Origin: Bacilli bacterium
GTDB taxonomy: Bacteria; Bacillota_I; Bacilli_A; RF39; UBA660
Direction of reading: 5' to 3'
NCBI GenBank assembly: GCA_028691955.1
Contig: JAQUYH010000002.1
Location: 13,012 to 77,011, forward strand
DNA length: 64,000 nt
Of the stretch, positions 1,958-51,927 are shown piece by piece. Below the pieces are notes generated by a model. The model worked only from the letters and a program-made list of their open reading frames with translations, made no database searches and was not told the DNA's origin. Numbering within the stretch: position 1 is the first letter of the stretch; each line of letters starts with the position of its first letter. Both the position numbers and the translations under genes were made by a program.

Positions 1958-3937
1958 TTAGCCTAAATCAGTTTCTTCTATTAAAAAGTTTTCTATTGCC
2001 TTATTTCCTAGATAATGATTACTTTTTAAATATTCTTCGCTATCTTCTTTTGCTTTGAGTAATATTTTATAGTCCCTTCTAATATCAGCAATCTTAAACA
2101 CCATATCTCCGCTTTGTCTAACCCCAAAAATATCTCCACCACCACGTAATATAAAATCTTCTTCACTTATTTTAAATCCATCATTAGTATTAGTTAAAAC
2201 ATTAAGGCGTTCCCTTTCAACATTACTTATTAAAATACAATAAGATTGTAAATCATTTCTACCAACTCTACCTCTTAATTGGTGCAAAGTAGATAATCCA
2301 AAACGATAACTATCAAAAATAACCATCATAGTTGCATTTTTAACATCAACTCCAACTTCAATAACAGTCGTACTAATTAAAATAGCAATTTTATTGTCTT
2401 TAAATCTATTCATAATCTCATCTTTTTCTTTACCACTCATTTTTCCATGAAGAATACCTATTTTACATATTTTACCAAAAGCTTGATTAAACTTTTCTTC
2501 TAAATCATAAACATTCTCCATATTTATTTTTTCACTTTCTTCAATGGATGGAGCGATAACATAAACTTGGTGATTTAATTTAATTTCGTTATGAATCCTC
2601 TGGAGAACTTCTCTCATCTCAGATTCATTTTTTAAAATAGTTATAACATCTTTTCTACCACTTGGCATAGTTTTGATATTAGAAACATCCATGTCACCAT
2701 ATAAAGTAAGCGCATAAGTTCTAGGAATTGGTGTAGCACTCATATAAAGTACATCAGGTAAAATTCCTTTATTTTTAAAATTAGTTCTTTCCCTAACACC
2801 GAAGCGATGCTGTTCATCAGTAATAACTAGTCCCAAATTATTGTACATAACATTATTAGTAAATAAAGCATGTGTACCAATCAAAACATCTATTTTATTT
2901 TCTAACAAATCAGCACAAATTTTCTTTTTTTCAGATGTCTTCATTTTACCAGTTAAAAGTCCTACATTAATTCCATAATTTTTAAATATTTTTAAAATGT
3001 TATTAAAGTGCTGAACAGCTAATATTTCAGTCGGAGCCATCAAAGCACTTTGATATCCTGCTAAATAATTAATATATATAGCAATAAAACTGACTATCGT
3101 TTTACCACTACCCACATCACCCTGTAAAAGTCTGTTCATTCTTTTACCACTTATTAAATCCTTATAAATATCATTAACTGCTTTAGTCTGATCCATAGTC
3201 AAGTTAAAAGGCAATGACATAACAAATTCATCAATATCTTTTCTTTTGACATTTCTACTAAGTCCAATCATATTCTTATTCATTTTTAAATAATTTATTT
3301 TAAGCATGAATAAAAATAATTCTTCATACTTTAAAGCAGCTCTCGCTTTATTTAATTTAACTATCGAGCTAGGATTATGAACCTCAATAATGCTTTCTCC
3401 TTTAGGTAACAAATTATATTTTTTATACAAATATTCTGGAATGATATTCTTTACCTCTATATTAGTTTTTCTAATCAAAATATTAATTTGTTTACTAGTA
3501 ATACCATATGTAGAATGATATATAGGAACAATTCTTGTTTCATTTCCAAGTAAAGATAATTCCATATTATTTGCCGTAACAAATTGATGTTTTAAATCAT
3601 ACTTTCCATAAACAGTAATAGGTGTTCCAATCTTAATCTTCGACTTTAAAAATCCTCTATTATATATAGCAACCCCTAAAATATTTCCTCCAATATTTAT
3701 TTTAAAAGACATTTTATTCATTTTTTTATTTATATAATAAACCACAGGCAATTTTTCACAATAACCATCTATTATAATATTATCCCCATCATTAAGCTCA
3801 TTAATAATACTTCTTTTAACAAGTTCATATCTAAAAGGATAATATGTAATTAAATCTATAGAGTTTTTTATGTTTAATTTTTCTAGCTGTTTGATAATTT
3901 TTTCATTAAATTTATTAAATTCCATAACTTCCTCCAT
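1958..3937 (-). CDS. recG: ATP-dependent DNA helicase RecG
   Basis: 659 aa. Wedge domain followed by DEAD/DEAH helicase motifs (GDVGSGKT, DEQHRFGV) and a C-terminal helicase domain. Confidence 0.9.
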   Translation of the reverse strand: MEEVMEFNKFNEKIIKQLEKLNIKNSIDLITYYPFRYELVKRSIINELNDGDNIIIDGYCEKLPVVYYINKKMNKMSFKINIGGNILGVAIYNRGFLKSKIKIGTPITVYGKYDLKHQFVTANNMELSLLGNETRIVPIYHSTYGITSKQINILIRKTNIEVKNIIPEYLYKKYNLLPKGESIIEVHNPSSIVKLNKARAALKYEELFLFMLKINYLKMNKNMIGLSRNVKRKDIDEFVMSLPFNLTMDQTKAVNDIYKDLISGKRMNRLLQGDVGSGKTIVSFIAIYINYLAGYQSALMAPTEILAVQHFNNILKIFKNYGINVGLLTGKMKTSEKKKICADLLENKIDVLIGTHALFTNNVMYNNLGLVITDEQHRFGVRERTNFKNKGILPDVLYMSATPIPRTYALTLYGDMDVSNIKTMPSGRKDVITILKNESEMREVLQRIHNEIKLNHQVYVIAPSIEESEKINMENVYDLEEKFNQAFGKICKIGILHGKMSGKEKDEIMNRFKDNKIAILISTTVIEVGVDVKNATMMVIFDSYRFGLSTLHQLRGRVGRNDLQSYCILISNVERERLNVLTNTNDGFKISEEDFILRGGGDIFGVRQSGDMVFKIADIRRDYKILLKAKEDSEEYLKSNHYLGNKAIENFLIEETDLG

Positions 3938-45577: not shown

Positions 45578-45588
45578 TAATAATCCTC

Positions 45589-47340
45589 CTATTCATCATT
45601 ATCACCTATACTACTAAGTAAATCAATAACAGCTTGTTTTAAATTAGAAGATGACTCTGTTGCCCCGCCTATTGTATCTAATGCAACTAAATCATATTGG
45701 TTATCTATAATTTGATTCAAATAATCATTATTATATATTTCATCAAACCTAGAATCATTTTGCTCTATAACATCAATATTAACTATAATGCCATCGCTTA
45801 CTAAAACAGCTAAACGTAAATCTCCACCATAACTATTTTTTTTAACATTATATATAGTTCCATAAGCAGTTTCCTCAGTGCTTTCAATAACAAAATCAGT
45901 TTCTTCATCAGTTACTTTACTATAATTATATCCTTCACCATTAGTATAATCATTTATTACATTTATAAGTAAATTTTTAATAGCTTGTGACGATATTGTT
46001 GCTCCTGCCACAGTATCTACATCATTTAAGTTAGCCTGATTCTCTACCAAGTCATTAACAAAATCAGTTTGTTTTACTCTTGGATAAAAATTGTCATCAT
46101 CTTCTAATATAGTATAACTTACAACTTCAGTAGAATTAAGTTTAATTTCAGCTTTAATAACGCTTGAGTATCCACTAACTTCCACAACATAAGTAGTAAT
46201 TTCATTACTAGTTTCTTTAGATAAAACAGTAAGTTTTTCTAAATCATTATCAAAACTATTTCCAATATATAAAGTCGTAATTGATAACAAACCAATTAAA
46301 CTAACAATTGGTATTACAGTATATATTCTTTTAAATCTAGACTTAAAGCCGATTCTATCTAATATAAAAACCAACATATTCATAATTAAAATGCTAACCA
46401 AAATGCCCTCTGGAAAAGGTGTCAAATATCTAATAATAACAGTTAAAATACCCAAAGAAACACCATATATAATCTGACCTACCCTAGTAACCGGACTAGT
46501 AACAGGATCTGTTGCCATAAATACGGCTCCAAACATCAAACCACCAGATAATACTTGAAACAAAGGATACCAAATTCCCAAGCCATTAATAAAGCCAATA
46601 GCAAAAGTACTAATAAATACAGTAGATATATATAAAACAGGAATAATAGGCTTTATAACCTTTTTGACCGTTAAGAATATAAATCCTAATATACATAACA
46701 AAGCACTAGTTTCACCCATACTGCCAGGAATAGATCCTAAAAAGAAATCCCATAAATTGCCATATGGCTTAACTAAAGCCGTATAACTACCTATACCATT
46801 AACCACATTAGATAAAGGTGTAGCCCCCGCTAAAGAATCTATTTCAGAGGGGTTTAAATATCCACCACTATTTGTAAGATTTAAAGCAGACAATATTACT
46901 ACAAATAGCATTCCAACTAAAGCTGGATTTAAAATATTACGACCAAATCCACCAAATATCATTTTACCAACAATAGTTGCAAAAATACTTCCAAGAATTA
47001 AAACACTTATTGGTGTATTCATAGATAAAATTAAGCCCAAAAATAAACCTGGAAAAATACTAAATGAAGATTTAACGCTTATTAATAATTCTCTTCCTCT
47101 TTTTTTAAGAACAAATAAGTGCCATAATAATTCAGTTAAATAACTAGTAAAAGCCGGAATAATTATAAACATTAAAGGATAAAATAATCCCGTAATATTA
47201 GTCTTATTTTGAGCATAGGGAATATATCCATTTTTATAAAAAGAGAATAAAATAATTGGAATAAGCGCTAAAAGAAGATTATTCATCATCTTATATGTAG
47301 AATTATCATCTTTTATATAAGTTCCTTTAAGTTCTTTCAT
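45589..47340 (-). CDS. RnfD/NqrB-like membrane subunit fused to two C-terminal FMN_bind (RnfG/NqrC/PplA-like) domains
   Basis: 583 aa. RnfD motifs IFGGFGRNILNPALVG, SLAGATPLS (FMN-attachment Thr) and FMATDPVTSP. After a final TM helix there are two FMN_bind signatures, DTVAGATISSQAIKNLL and DTIGGATESSSNLKQAV. Confidence 0.75.
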   Translation of the reverse strand: MKELKGTYIKDDNSTYKMMNNLLLALIPIILFSFYKNGYIPYAQNKTNITGLFYPLMFIIIPAFTSYLTELLWHLFVLKKRGRELLISVKSSFSIFPGLFLGLILSMNTPISVLILGSIFATIVGKMIFGGFGRNILNPALVGMLFVVILSALNLTNSGGYLNPSEIDSLAGATPLSNVVNGIGSYTALVKPYGNLWDFFLGSIPGSMGETSALLCILGFIFLTVKKVIKPIIPVLYISTVFISTFAIGFINGLGIWYPLFQVLSGGLMFGAVFMATDPVTSPVTRVGQIIYGVSLGILTVIIRYLTPFPEGILVSILIMNMLVFILDRIGFKSRFKRIYTVIPIVSLIGLLSITTLYIGNSFDNDLEKLTVLSKETSNEITTYVVEVSGYSSVIKAEIKLNSTEVVSYTILEDDDNFYPRVKQTDFVNDLVENQANLNDVDTVAGATISSQAIKNLLINVINDYTNGEGYNYSKVTDEETDFVIESTEETAYGTIYNVKKNSYGGDLRLAVLVSDGIIVNIDVIEQNDSRFDEIYNNDYLNQIIDNQYDLVALDTIGGATESSSNLKQAVIDLLSSIGDNDE

Positions 47341-48599
47341 ACTTCTTCACCCCTTTTAATTTTATCCTTAGCTTCCTTTACATATTCTCTAATAGGAAGC
47401 TTAGCAGGGCAAATATAAGAGCAAAGGCCACATTCCATACAACGATCAGCTTGAAGCTCTTTAAGTCTTTCCATATTATTCAAACTATTTTTAATTAAAA
47501 CTGGAGTAAGTTTAACAGGACAAACATCAACACATTTACCACATTTCATGCATTCAGTTCCTCTTTCAAACTGTTTATCCATAATCAAAACACAAGTTAA
47601 ATTAGAAGTTATAACTAAATCATTATCAGATAAAGTCCCCATCATAGGACCGCCAGCAATTAAATTAAAATCTTTTAATTTCTCTTTACCTAACATTTCT
47701 TTAATAACATCAGTAGCTGTTGAACCAACTTTAACCAAAATATTTTTAGGCTTCTTTACAATATTTCCAGTAAAAGTTACTACCCTCTCAGTTAAAGGTT
47801 TATTATATTTTAAAGCCTCATATATAGCAAAAATTGTAGAGACATTATTTACAACAATATTCTTTTCCGTTGGAAACTTATCATAACTAGTATTATATAT
47901 TTCCTTTATTAAACTTCTTTCCCAGCCTATAGGATATAAATTAGGAACTTCTTTAATTTTAATTTTAAGATACGTTCCGATATAATTATTTAAAACTTTC
48001 AATAGCTCAATATTGGTTTTTTTAACAGCAATAAAGGCTTCATCTATTTTATTTATATCCATAATCATGTCTATTGCTTCAAGAATTTCTTCCGTATGTT
48101 CCTTAAGTAAAACATAATCAGCCGTAATATATGGTTCACACTCCACAGCATTAATTAAAAGCTTATTTATTTTTTCCGTACTATATTTAATATAAGTAGG
48201 AAAACCTGCTCCTCCCATACCTAAAATAGAATTATCTTGTAAAATATTTAAAAAAGTCTTTTTATCAATTTTATTAACAACTTTATTTTCAATAGACTTT
48301 TCTTTAAAATCATTTTCTATTTTAACACATTTTACTTCTTCGCCATTTAAATATGGCATATTTACAAAATCTATAACAGTACCACTTACTGTAGAAATAA
48401 TAGGAAACTTAATTTTTCCTTTTCTTTTTCCAACATGCGCTCCTTTTAAAACATAATCACCTTTTTTTACTAAAACAGTTATGTCAACATCATTACAATT
48501 TATTAACGGTATATATACATATTTAGGTTTATTATAAATAGATATTAATTTATCTTTTGCTGCTTTTTTATAACCACTTAACTTCAATCCTATAGACAC
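47337..48599 (-). CDS. rnfC: RnfC-like NADH-binding subunit (two 4Fe-4S ferredoxin motifs)
   Basis: 420 aa. GMGGAGFPT nucleotide-binding loop, CMKCGKCVDVCP and CMECGLCSYICP clusters. 4-nt overlap with the RnfD-fusion gene. Confidence 0.85.
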   Translation of the reverse strand: MSIGLKLSGYKKAAKDKLISIYNKPKYVYIPLINCNDVDITVLVKKGDYVLKGAHVGKRKGKIKFPIISTVSGTVIDFVNMPYLNGEEVKCVKIENDFKEKSIENKVVNKIDKKTFLNILQDNSILGMGGAGFPTYIKYSTEKINKLLINAVECEPYITADYVLLKEHTEEILEAIDMIMDINKIDEAFIAVKKTNIELLKVLNNYIGTYLKIKIKEVPNLYPIGWERSLIKEIYNTSYDKFPTEKNIVVNNVSTIFAIYEALKYNKPLTERVVTFTGNIVKKPKNILVKVGSTATDVIKEMLGKEKLKDFNLIAGGPMMGTLSDNDLVITSNLTCVLIMDKQFERGTECMKCGKCVDVCPVKLTPVLIKNSLNNMERLKELQADRCMECGLCSYICPAKLPIREYVKEAKDKIKRGEEV

Positions 48600-48702
48600 A
48601 TTAATTCACTCTACTTTCCTTACAAAGATTATAACATTTTTATTATAAACTTTAAACCCTTTATTTAACTATAAAATAAAAAGCACTATAAAAGTGCTTA
48701 AA

Positions 48703-49008
48703 CTATTTTTTTCTTCTCATAAATACTTTGACAGTATAATACAAAAATAATGCCATTATTGCAATAAATGCCCAAGATAAAATATCATTAATAATTCCTG
48801 AAGAGTGTCTATTAATTATAGATAAAATACTACTTGGAAAATAATTACTAATAAAACTAGAAATTTCTTTGACATTAATATTATATCTAACAAAATCAAG
48901 TATTCTTAAAAGAATATCAATCATTGCTACTCCATAAACAAAACTAGTAAATCTCTTAAAAAACATAATAATAAAAAATAAAATAAAAACTAAAATAACT
49001 GCTTCCAT
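48703..49008 (-). CDS. small two-TM membrane protein, unknown function
   Basis: 101 aa with two hydrophobic helices. Confidence 0.35.
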   Translation of the reverse strand: MEAVILVFILFFIIMFFKRFTSFVYGVAMIDILLRILDFVRYNINVKEISSFISNYFPSSILSIINRHSSGIINDILSWAFIAIMALFLYYTVKVFMRRKK

Positions 49009-51462: not shown

Positions 51463-51927
51463 CTATTTTAATAATTCAGAAATTTGTGGCATAAAAATTA
51501 CAGCTAAAGCAAGTAACAACAAGATGAAAATGATCAATATTAAGCTAGACTTACTTTTATTCTTTTGCTTCTGTGTTGTACCTATAACTTGTTCAGTAAC
51601 TACTTCTGGCTTATCTTTAGCTTCATCCATGCTTACTACTTCAGGACCTTCTATAACTTCTTCTTGTACAGGTTGAATAGTTGGTTCAATTGGAGCCACA
51701 GGCTCTACTGGAACACTCTCAACCGGTTCAACTGGAGCTACAGGTTCTACTGGAACACTTTGAGTTGGTTCAACTGGAGCTACAGGTTCTACTGGAACAC
51801 TTTGAGTTGGTTCAACTGGAGCTACAGGTTCTACTGAAATATTCTCCATAGACTCATTTGAAGTATCTACAGGTGTATAACTATCACTTAGTGGATTTAA
51901 ATTTTCTAAATTTTGATCTTCTTTCAT
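51463..51927 (-). CDS. C-terminally membrane-anchored Pro/Val/Glu-rich tandem-repeat protein
   Basis: 154 aa. Repeated 14-aa unit VEPVAPVEPTQSVP, with a C-terminal LILIIFILLLLALAVIF anchor. Confidence 0.6.
   Translation of the reverse strand: MKEDQNLENLNPLSDSYTPVDTSNESMENISVEPVAPVEPTQSVPVEPVAPVEPTQSVPVEPVAPVEPVESVPVEPVAPIEPTIQPVQEEVIEGPEVVSMDEAKDKPEVVTEQVIGTTQKQKNKSKSSLILIIFILLLLALAVIFMPQISELLK
51683..51840. repeat. 42-bp tandem repeat, about 3.7 copies (unit GGTTCAACTGGAGCTACAGGTTCTACTGGAACACTTTGAGTT), inside the Pro-rich gene
   Basis: Units at 51725-51766 and 51767-51808 are identical, flanked by degenerate copies. Confidence 0.8.

Follow-up and report, generated by a model that had tools for sequence, protein, structure and literature searches.

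Genes and features of the locus

The window, i.e., the whole stretch of DNA analysed here, is 64 kb long and comes from an uncultured, low-GC bacterium of the gut. We identified in it two adjacent genes that encode homologues of subunits of the Rnf complex. These genes and the features associated with them are as follows.

47337..48599, minus strand: rnfC (420 aa), predicted NADH/FMN module of the cytoplasmic side, carrying two [4Fe-4S] clusters (Pfam and TIGR01945)
47517..47552, minus strand: RnfC [4Fe-4S] motif 1, CMKCGKCVDVCP (motif scan and coordinate check)
47406..47441, minus strand: RnfC [4Fe-4S] motif 2, CMECGLCSYICP (motif scan and coordinate check)
45589..47340, minus strand: fused rnfD::rnfG::FMN_bind gene (583 aa; Pfam profiles and flavinylation motifs)
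46336..47322, minus strand: RnfD membrane domain, residues 7-335 (PF03116, NQR2_RnfD_RnfE, E 9e-75)
46819..46821, minus strand: Thr174 codon, predicted attachment site of covalent FMN in RnfD (DSLAGATPL; invariant in the family alignment)
46396..46398, minus strand: RnfD codon 315, Val in the window (family alignment)
46252..46314, minus strand: extra transmembrane helix, residues 343-363, counterpart of the RnfG anchor (hydropathy and charge distribution)
45946..46227, minus strand: FMN_bind domain 1, RnfG-type (Pfam), with predicted flavinylation at Thr448 (DTVAGATIS, codon 45997-45999)
45598..45894, minus strand: FMN_bind domain 2 (Pfam), with predicted flavinylation at Thr561 (DTIGGATES, codon 45658-45660)
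45578..45588, minus strand: junction of 11 bp from the rnfD::GG stop to the yceD start, TAG GAGGATTATTA ATG, at the site of rnfE-rnfA (~1.2 kb) in relatives
48628-48656, minus strand: extended -10 promoter-like site upstream of rnfC, suggestive only
48681-48699 (in 48628..48699), minus strand: terminator-like hairpin after the gene for a 101-aa membrane protein, suggestive only

Both open reading frames are intact, and the rnfC stop and the start of the fused gene share an ATGA overlap. Shuffled sequence yields promoter-like matches at least as often as the region upstream of rnfC. The 420-aa protein has the Pfam domains RnfC_N, Complex1_51K, SLBB and Fer4, scores 339 bits against TIGR01945 (rnfC; cutoff 246) and carries the CxxCxxCxxxCP motif twice, at residues 350 and 387, intact in both cases. 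Its assignment to RnfC, made in an earlier note on this DNA from the letters of the sequence, is thus confirmed.

The same note described the second protein as RnfD fused to two FMN_bind domains, and the PF03116 match and the two separate FMN_bind stretches bear this out. Against TIGR01946 the fused protein scores 199 bits, narrowly below the cutoff of 207 because of its fusion and divergence. Alignment to 7zc6_D and 9eri_D identifies D278 (in FMATDP) as the equivalent of Asp249 of Acetobacterium woodii RnfD, which binds riboflavin (PMC11889175). The GATPL flavinylation site recognised earlier corresponds to Thr174, which aligns with TATPL of C. tetanomorphum RnfD, and two further sites accompany it, as each FMN_bind domain has a DxxxGAT motif. 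All three flavinylation threonines (T174, T448 and T561) are intact.

The FMN_bind domains are 26% identical to each other, and domain 2 matches 8p2b_A. No FMN_bind domain occurs in the 64-kb window other than those of the fused RnfD tail, and no PF00175 NAD-binding domain was identified in the fused protein by Pfam search. On these domain assignments rnfG is present in the window as the fused C-terminal part of RnfD, and so is not missing. The twin domains had been likened to those of PplA, but they are not PplA orthologues: the PplA model NF041941, with a cutoff of 325 bits, gives 18.4 bits and covers 46 residues only, and the domains form the tail of a polytopic protein. By their profile matches they are RnfG-derived duplicates.

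In an AlphaFold2 model of the fused protein (pLDDT 74), residues 1-330 fit the RnfD subunits of three Rnf complexes of known structure (TM 0.73-0.79; one match TM 0.78), and one FMN domain superposes on 8p2b (TM 0.80). The extra helix spans residues 339-361 in this model. Five Lys/Arg residues lie just before it, and the 218-aa tail is acidic (41 D/E vs 13 K/R) and free of Cys. The helix is thus predicted to carry the RnfD tail with both FMN_bind domains to the outside, in agreement with the topology expected in the earlier note.

Genomic neighbourhood and absent subunits

The neighbours are, as had been stated, yceD and rpmF on one side, where recX also lies, and on the other the gene for the 101-aa membrane protein together with scpB/scpA. 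The 101-aa protein was considered as a partner and set aside: its gene is kept in the related locus L084, is absent from L082 and other loci, and has no Pfam match.

The rnfA, rnfB and rnfE genes were said not to be adjacent, and their absence extends to the whole window. Profiles for RnfA/E (PF02508), RnfB (PF04060) and ApbE, run against all open reading frames and all six-frame fragments of 20 aa or more, identified none of these proteins in the 64 kb (best match E 0.04, 10 bits). Profile search also found no ApbE in the flanks of any locus of the fusion family. Judged by its predicted gene products, the module as encoded in the window cannot be a ferredoxin:NAD+ oxidoreductase, since RnfA/E and RnfB are missing from the locus.

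The rnfE, rnfA and rnfB genes could lie elsewhere in the genome, because the window is 64 kb of a contig of ~163 kb from one MAG. The module would then belong to a split canonical Rnf, an ordinary ferredoxin:NAD+ oxidoreductase in which the D and G subunits are fused. Such a fusion does work inside the full operons of most relatives. We nevertheless regard a split complex as quite unlikely. Of the observations that count against it, one comes from database accessions and is weak: among the best 120 matches to the RnfE of L084, itself divergent, none of the readable accessions nearest that protein (3/10 NCBI-sourced) falls in the range of the window MAG (MDD318xxxx). The others come from related loci.

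Origin from a complete operon

About 15 useful related loci came, among the matches listed, from a metagenome scan with the generic C-terminal alignment pattern DTV[STA]GAT[IV]T. The norm in this clade of uncultured Bacilli is rnfC-rnfD::G-rnfE-rnfA-rnfB. We identified rnfE/A in 27 loci with an RnfD-FMN_bind fusion, and a short rnfB in most of these. The fusion is therefore, across the loci compared, a lineage-wide trait of complete Rnf operons, and the comparison does not support a module newly assembled on an Rnf scaffold.

The closest relative of the window locus, L084 (61% identity), has the syntenic gene order Band_7-scpA-scpB-101aa-rnfC-rnfDGG-rnfE-rnfA-yceD-rpmF-recX, and L082 is likewise ordered rnfE-rnfA-yceD. 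In the window, 11 bp precede yceD at the exact place of rnfE-rnfA in L084. By synteny, the window module is what a clean deletion of rnfE-rnfA has left of a full rnfC-rnfD::G-rnfE-rnfA(-rnfB) operon. The earlier description of an orphan two-gene module thus holds for the two-gene architecture, but not for the orphan status. The place where rnfE-rnfA stood in the ancestor can be identified and is empty, which argues against a split complex.

The loss appears to be the last of several. The rnfB gene is missing from the operon in the window's subclade, and it is missing from the operons of L082, L084, L085 and L092. Every locus with rnfB keeps four of four Cys ligands of the RnfA/E [2Fe-2S] cluster, as these ligands are defined in PMC9588780 and PMC11889175, whereas rnfB-less L084 has lost two of the four and rnfB-less L092 at least three. 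From this distribution, the ferredoxin/[2Fe-2S] half of the complex is decaying stepwise, with loss of rnfB, then of the Cys ligands, and then, in the window, of rnfE/A. That sister lineages already lack an operon rnfB, and that one is losing its [2Fe-2S] ligands, points to decay rather than to relocation of the missing genes.

Decay of this kind may not stop at rnfE/A. A recent deletion in a reductive lineage (B, then Cys ligands, then A/E) could have left a non-functional remnant, with rnfC-rnfD::GG now being lost through genome reduction. The retained genes suggest otherwise, as both reading frames are intact and the cofactor ligands are all kept. Divergence from L084 is also not above that of flanking housekeeping genes: RnfC is 65% and the RnfD domain 71% identical between the two loci, with RnfD conserved at least as well as the products of the flanking scpA, scpB, yceD, recX and prsA. 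In leave-one-out counts the window protein does deviate at 4 otherwise invariant positions, compared with 0-1 in most relatives. These deviations are conservative, and similar counts are reached by relatives with full operons. As a marker of relaxed selection the count was rejected, being high in two proteins from loci without rnfE/A and also in the full-operon proteins P0044, P0080 and P0085.

Recurrent loss of rnfE/A and substitution of Thr315

The state with rnfC and fused rnfD alone (CD-only) occurs in five independent lineages: the window, L001, L011, L097 and L144/L146/L148. The count is based on a rough neighbour-joining tree, in which the nearest neighbour of each CD-only lineage has rnfE/A, except for L011; its nearest neighbour is L014, whose contig ends 10 bp past rnfD::G. 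Whether the CD-only form is lineage-wide had been posed as a matter for synteny comparison. It is not, as the 27 fusion loci with rnfE/A show, but it recurs. Both kinds of motif, Fe-S and flavinylation, are intact in the window, L001, L011, L014 and L097, and in L148, where the check covered the FMN-domain motifs only, these are intact as well.

No RnfA/E or RnfB signal was found in the 8-10 kb flanks of L001, L011, L144 and L146, which again speaks against a complex encoded in two places. In L097, with ~1 kb of downstream sequence, one weak match to the RnfB profile (E 4.5e-4) lies in a Cys-rich, radical-SAM-like reading frame and was judged spurious. A 173-aa reading frame after rnfDGG in L146 was considered as a degenerate RnfE and rejected, as it has no profile match. 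In RnfC of the CD-only or rnfB-less lineages we looked for a truncated C terminus and for changes shared by convergence, and found no convincing signal.

RnfD carries a different mark. Residue 315 is Thr in 24/27 relatives with rnfE/A; it is Ile or Val in 5/5 CD-only lineages and in none of the 27 rnfE/A loci (Fisher 5e-6). In a blind test, substitution at this residue foretold the CD-only status of P0116 and P0053 before their contexts had been seen. In the family alignment, the change from Thr315 to Ile/Val is convergent across all CD-only lineages. Its restriction to RnfD proteins without adjacent rnfE/A is a further point against a split Rnf.

Inside one CD-only clade dN/dS is 0.16-0.23, vs 0.08-0.09 in flanking genes, at dS values of 0.85-1.2 that are near saturation. 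By these ratios purifying selection maintains the pair of genes in that clade. The evidence comes from another CD-only clade because the protein collection contains a single representative of the window species, and such a lone occurrence is compatible with a remnant on its way out. Given purifying selection on the two-gene state elsewhere and its fivefold recurrence, we consider a non-functional remnant unlikely.

Relation to known electron-transfer systems

The window RnfC, RnfD and RnfG-type domain are true homologues of the subunits of canonical Rnf (RnfABCDGE; 7ZC6, 8AHX and 9ERI), with identical cofactor sites. The locus descends directly from a full rnf operon and keeps the contiguous NADH-RnfC-RnfD-RnfG branch. 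Canonical Rnf also has RnfA/E (membrane [2Fe-2S] cluster and Na+ coupling) and RnfB (ferredoxin input), for which neither the locus nor the 64 kb has any gene, and its RnfG is a separate subunit, whereas that of the window is fused to the RnfD C-terminus and duplicated.

The NQR/RNF-like two-subunit systems follow the same logic, with a partial complex, one transmembrane path and a proposed one-way flow from NAD(P)H to an extracytoplasmic FMN domain (Méheust et al., 2021, PMC8238504; Huang et al., 2024, PMC10979944). These systems, found mainly in Actinobacteria and CPR, have RnfD fused to a cytosolic PF00175 domain, a separate RnfG-like subunit and no RnfD flavinylation threonine. In the window, NADH input is instead by a separate Fe-S protein, RnfC, the FMN domains are on RnfD, and Thr174 is kept. 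Some RNF clusters encode a multi-flavinylated RnfG, i.e., an extracytoplasmic subunit with more than one FMN_bind domain as in the window, which has been explained as an additional outlet towards external acceptors (Méheust et al., 2021, PMC8238504). Unlike the window, these clusters retain every subunit of the complex, RnfB being the criterion by which they were recognised. We found no description of an RnfD-RnfG fusion or of a CD-only Rnf (A/E/B loss) in the literature searched.

Listeria-type extracellular electron transfer (Ndh2, DMK, EetA/B, PplA and FmnB) shares an end point with the window module, as it feeds electrons from NADH to a surface protein with two covalently flavinylated FMN_bind domains. 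Homology is confined to FMN_bind, and the window has no lipoprotein, no quinone step and neither Ndh2 nor EetAB. The membrane crossing of the module would be via the flavins of RnfD.

Stand-alone homologues of RnfC exist, and the PrdC model TIGR04481 matches the window protein at 160.6 bits. The module could thus have another role, either inward flow from an extracellular donor to NAD+ or NADH-linked donation to another partner, membrane-bound or soluble, much as PrdC supplies proline reductase. Electron transfer in Rnf is reversible (PMC11889175), as inward flow would require. We think such roles very unlikely. The PrdC score is far below the cutoff of 490, and none of the genes neighbouring the window module is a prd gene. 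Nor was a conserved partner gene, reductase or candidate acceptor seen adjoining any CD-only locus. The retention of three outward flavinylation sites also suggests that the outside end matters.

Proposed function and implications

We lean towards the view that the locus encodes a naturally truncated Rnf, and that the retained half is a functional, non-pumping conduit from NADH to extracytoplasmic flavin. Electrons would pass from NADH to FMN in RnfC, through two [4Fe-4S] clusters to riboflavin in RnfD, and on to covalent FMN at Thr174, Thr448 and Thr561 in turn. The retained half would correspond to the contiguous electron path of the solved Rnf structures. Without RnfA/E/B there would be no return of electrons to ferredoxin; they would exit to an extracytoplasmic acceptor, with NAD+ regenerated. 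The acceptor might be a metal, oxygen, free flavin or a reductase at the surface, and the conduit would depend on an ApbE-type flavin transferase from another part of the genome. The solved structures define the electron path and show RnfG docked chiefly on RnfA/E (PMC9588780; PMC11889175), so the tethering of RnfG to RnfD may have been a pre-adaptation to the loss of RnfA/E, its usual docking site. One-way partial NQR/RNF systems and the multi-flavinylated RnfG outlet provide precedent (PMC8238504; PMC10979944).

The conduit would probably operate without ion pumping, as Na+ pumping has been assigned to RnfA/E and electron transfer only to RnfD (Kumar et al., 2025, PMC11889175). This follows one of two competing models, because the window RnfD retains residues that had at one time been suggested to form a Na+ path. 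Since the other subunits were lost in at least four other related lineages, the retained half probably functions by itself, as an electron wire that leads from NADH to the cell surface. The one-way conduit without an RnfA/E core, as first suggested in the earlier note, thereby gains indirect support, from recurrence in five lineages, intact cofactor sites, the dN/dS values and the published assignment of pumping (PMC11889175).

More tentatively, we propose as a possibility that gut-associated, small-genome Bacilli have stripped Rnf at least five times to a self-sufficient, non-pumping RnfC-RnfD::G(G). This would be a quinone- and cytochrome-free wire from NADH to surface flavin and an outlet that regenerates NAD+. 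The G-D fusion would have enabled loss of RnfA/E, and the change of Thr315 to Ile/Val would be an adaptation that mends the interface left empty.

The six subunits of Rnf and of Nqr are regarded as forming an indivisible pump, and the site of pumping, RnfD/NqrB or RnfA/E, remains disputed among structural groups. If rnfEAB are elsewhere in these genomes, the operon is simply split and its D-G subunit fused, and the locus is ordinary. If the conduit is real, it is a dissection made by nature, with the electron-transfer half of Rnf parted from the ion-pumping half. The series from full operon to loss of rnfB, of the [2Fe-2S] ligands and of rnfE/A, is of use in its own right and, together with residue 315, gives a simple sequence rule for half-complexes in metagenomes. 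A selected, natural RnfC-RnfD-RnfG complex would mean that the branch from NADH to periplasmic flavin is a stable and useful unit alone, and would provide a minimal system for testing ion movement by RnfD alone. It would also add an Rnf-derived route to the means of electron disposal of quinone- and cytochrome-free Gram-positive gut bacteria.

The rnfC and rnfD::GG genes

Two overlapping open reading frames occupy positions 45589-48599 of the window on the minus strand, with the rnfC stop overlapping the rnfD start in the sequence ATGA.

47337-48599, minus strand: rnfC, 420 aa, with RnfC_N, Complex1_51K, SLBB and Fer4 domains
45589-47340, minus strand: rnfD::GG (rnfD fused to two RnfG-type domains), 583 aa in four parts, with PF03116 and two FMN_bind domains

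RnfC has two CxxCxxCxxxCP motifs and scores 339 bits against TIGR01945, above the curated cutoff; assignment to PrdC was ruled out by profile-model score. The fusion protein comprises an RnfD domain (residues 7-335; PF03116, E 9e-75), a basic linker C-terminal of it (DRIGFKSRFKR), one additional hydrophobic helix (residues 343-363) and an acidic, cysteine-free tail with two FMN_bind domains that are 26% identical to each other. In an AlphaFold2 model (pLDDT 74), one FMN domain matches 8p2b, and the first 330 residues superpose with TM scores of 0.73-0.79 on the RnfD subunits of the Rnf complexes from A. woodii, A. vinelandii and C. tetanomorphum. Three ApbE-type motifs, DSLAGATPL (T174), DTVAGATIS (T448) and DTIGGATES (T561), are putative flavinylation sites and are kept in an alignment of 25 relatives. 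Because both termini of RnfD are cytoplasmic, where they bind RnfC (PMC11889175), and the fusion adds one helix, the tail is predicted to lie outside, which is the topology of RnfG. Thus, rnfG is present in the window as a fused and duplicated domain.

No profile match to RnfA/E, RnfB or ApbE was found in any open reading frame or six-frame fragment of the window, the remainder of which consists of housekeeping genes. The profile searches thus bear out an earlier note, which described a two-gene module of RnfC and an RnfD homolog with a GATPL flavinylation site and two FMN_bind domains, without rnfA, rnfB or rnfE; the predicted topology agrees with its outward placement of these domains. The note also called the twin domains PplA-like, but PplA orthology was ruled out by profile-model score.

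Elsewhere in the window, an Rfam PGK RNA motif (RF03040; 4097-4190, minus strand; 59.9 bits, above the gathering score) sits between ffh and recG, not beside a pgk gene. A 154-aa protein (51463-51927, minus strand) without a Pfam match combines tandem VPVEPVAPVEPTQS-type repeats with a hydrophobic anchor at its C-terminus.

The fusion in complete operons

Homologues of the fusion protein number in the thousands. Among the top 120, every protein contains both PF03116 and PF04205 and has a length of about 580-600 aa; these proteins come from gut and rumen samples and are labeled as uncultured Bacilli, Tenericutes or Firmicutes. Gene context was examined in 32 distinct lineages. Two same-strand PF02508 genes (rnfE and rnfA) follow the fused gene in 27 of these, so the RnfD-FMN_bind fusion is characteristic of this lineage's complete Rnf operons. 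Usually next is a short rnfB (84-105 aa, PF04060 only), whose product is similar to the short T. maritima RnfB (PMC9588780). The form with rnfC and the fused rnfD only (CD-only), whose distribution in related genomes the earlier note raised as a question, recurs in five lineages.

In Erysipelotrichaceae, a separate RnfG exists alongside an RnfD that itself bears FMN_bind domains. Loci L020, L024, L032, L037 and L039 of this family (Anaerorhabdus, Stoquefichus, Solobacterium and others) have full rnfCDGEAB operons, with RnfD of 500-709 aa, 1-3 C-terminal FMN_bind domains and sometimes an adjoining ApbE gene. A fusion variant with three FMN_bind domains (P0002, 695 aa, and members P0123-P0125) would carry four covalent flavins. 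In locus L142 (9858-10688), an extra 276-aa open reading frame without a Pfam match lies between rnfD::GG and rnfE of an otherwise complete operon.

Loss of rnfE and rnfA

The closest relative of the window, locus L084 (61% identity), shares about 13 kb of synteny with it. The common order is rpsM-rpsK-rpoA-rplQ ... Band_7-scpA-scpB-101aa-rnfC-rnfDGG-yceD-rpmF-recX, with prsA on the opposite strand. L084 has rnfE-rnfA between rnfDGG and yceD, and locus L082 likewise reads rnfE-rnfA-yceD-rpmF-recX. In the window, only 11 bp with the yceD ribosome-binding site follow the rnfDGG stop. rnfE and rnfA were thus cleanly excised, and the module is a remnant of a full operon, not the orphan proposed earlier. 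The 101-aa membrane protein between scpB and rnfC (window 48703-49008, minus strand; L084 8304-8609; 64% identity) has no Pfam match and is absent from the corresponding position in L082.

Four invariant RnfA/E cysteines ligate the membrane [2Fe-2S] cluster (PMC9588780, PMC11889175). All four are kept in all of the approximately 25 operons with rnfB. The operons of the window's subclade (L082, L084, L085) and of locus L092 lack rnfB; two of the four ligands are lost in L084 (11778-12924) and at least three in L092 (6653-7709). RnfE of L084 is unusually divergent (best non-self match 49%). RnfC and RnfD::G retain every ligand in the lineages examined. The window represents the end point of this stepwise decay, in which both rnfE and rnfA were lost. 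On a short metagenomic contig, L085 has an apparently truncated rnfA (2709-3005, 98 aa), which may reflect pseudogenization or misassembly.

The five CD-only lineages are the window, L001 (on chromosome OW818670.1), L011 (with sister L014), L097 and the clade L144/L146/L148. Neither an ApbE gene nor a candidate electron acceptor was seen beside any of these loci. Their losses of rnfE/A look independent, because in a neighbor-joining tree the nearest neighbor of four of the five is a protein from an rnfE/A-bearing locus (that of L011 is L014, whose downstream region is not readable). RnfD residue 315 (window 46396-46398) is Ile or Val in all five, and among the 27 rnfE/A loci is Thr in 24 and Ile or Val in none (Fisher 5e-6). 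Pro106 (residue 106 at window 47023-47025) is replaced by Ser in three of the five. Both are convergent substitutions in RnfD of lineages without rnfE/A. Ile315 was used to forecast gene context blind, before inspection: homologous fusion proteins P0116 and P0053, which share synteny, proved CD-only as predicted, and for P0076 (also Ile315) a convergent gene begins 20 bp past the stop. Their clade has five or more species-level proteins, all with Ile315 and 68-77% identity to one another. The residue 315 signature suggests that the structural surroundings of RnfD truly changed, which argues against a simple relocation of rnfE/A. Behind rnfD::GG in L001 (12009-15276) come two large proteins of 461 and 542 aa; both have prepilin-type N_methyl domains, and a surface Ig-like domain is also present in one.

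Selection on the retained genes

In the P0116/P0053/P0076 clade, used because the window lineage is a singleton, dN/dS is 0.16-0.21 for rnfC, 0.18-0.23 for rnfDGG (0.12 for the RnfD part alone) and 0.08-0.09 for flanking genes, at dS values of 0.85-1.2 that are near saturation. Between the window and L084, the RnfD domain (71% identity) and RnfC (65%) are at least as conserved as flanking genes (ScpA 65%, ScpB 57%, YceD 55%, RecX 50-51%, PrsA 64-66%). The pair could be a decaying remnant, but these values and the recurrence in five lineages argue against this.

Proposed electron path

Meheust et al. (2021; PMC8238504) reported incomplete NQR/RNF-like systems in which flow is one-way. Unlike the window module, these have RnfD fused to a PF00175 NAD-binding domain, a separate RnfG-like subunit and loss of the RnfD threonine. 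Those authors considered multi-flavinylated RnfG in RNF clusters a possible second outlet. Their RNF class required RnfB, so CD-only loci would fall outside it. Neither the D-G fusion nor CD-only Rnf was described in the literature searched.

In Rnf complexes of solved structure, electrons pass from ferredoxin via RnfB, the RnfA/E [2Fe-2S], FMN(RnfG), FMN(RnfD), riboflavin, two RnfC [4Fe-4S] clusters and FMN(RnfC) to NAD+ (PMC9588780, PMC11889175), and the path is reversible (PMC11889175). The window retains exactly the NAD(H)-to-FMN(RnfG) segment, plus one further predicted outward FMN. RnfG docks mainly on RnfA/E and weakly on RnfD (PMC11889175); its counterpart here could stay functional without RnfA/E because it is covalently tethered to RnfD. 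According to Kumar et al. (PMC11889175), Na+ is pumped by RnfA/E, and RnfD serves in electron transfer only; on this model the module would not pump. Vitt et al. place a Na+ path in RnfD (PMC9588780), and the matching residues are conserved in the window fusion protein. The earlier interpretation is partly supported: the two-gene architecture holds, and the idea of a minimal NADH-to-flavin transmembrane conduit gains indirect support from recurrence and selection, but orphan status and PplA orthology are not supported. The simplest reading is that electrons would flow one way, from NADH to an external acceptor, because there is no [2Fe-2S] cluster for them to return to.
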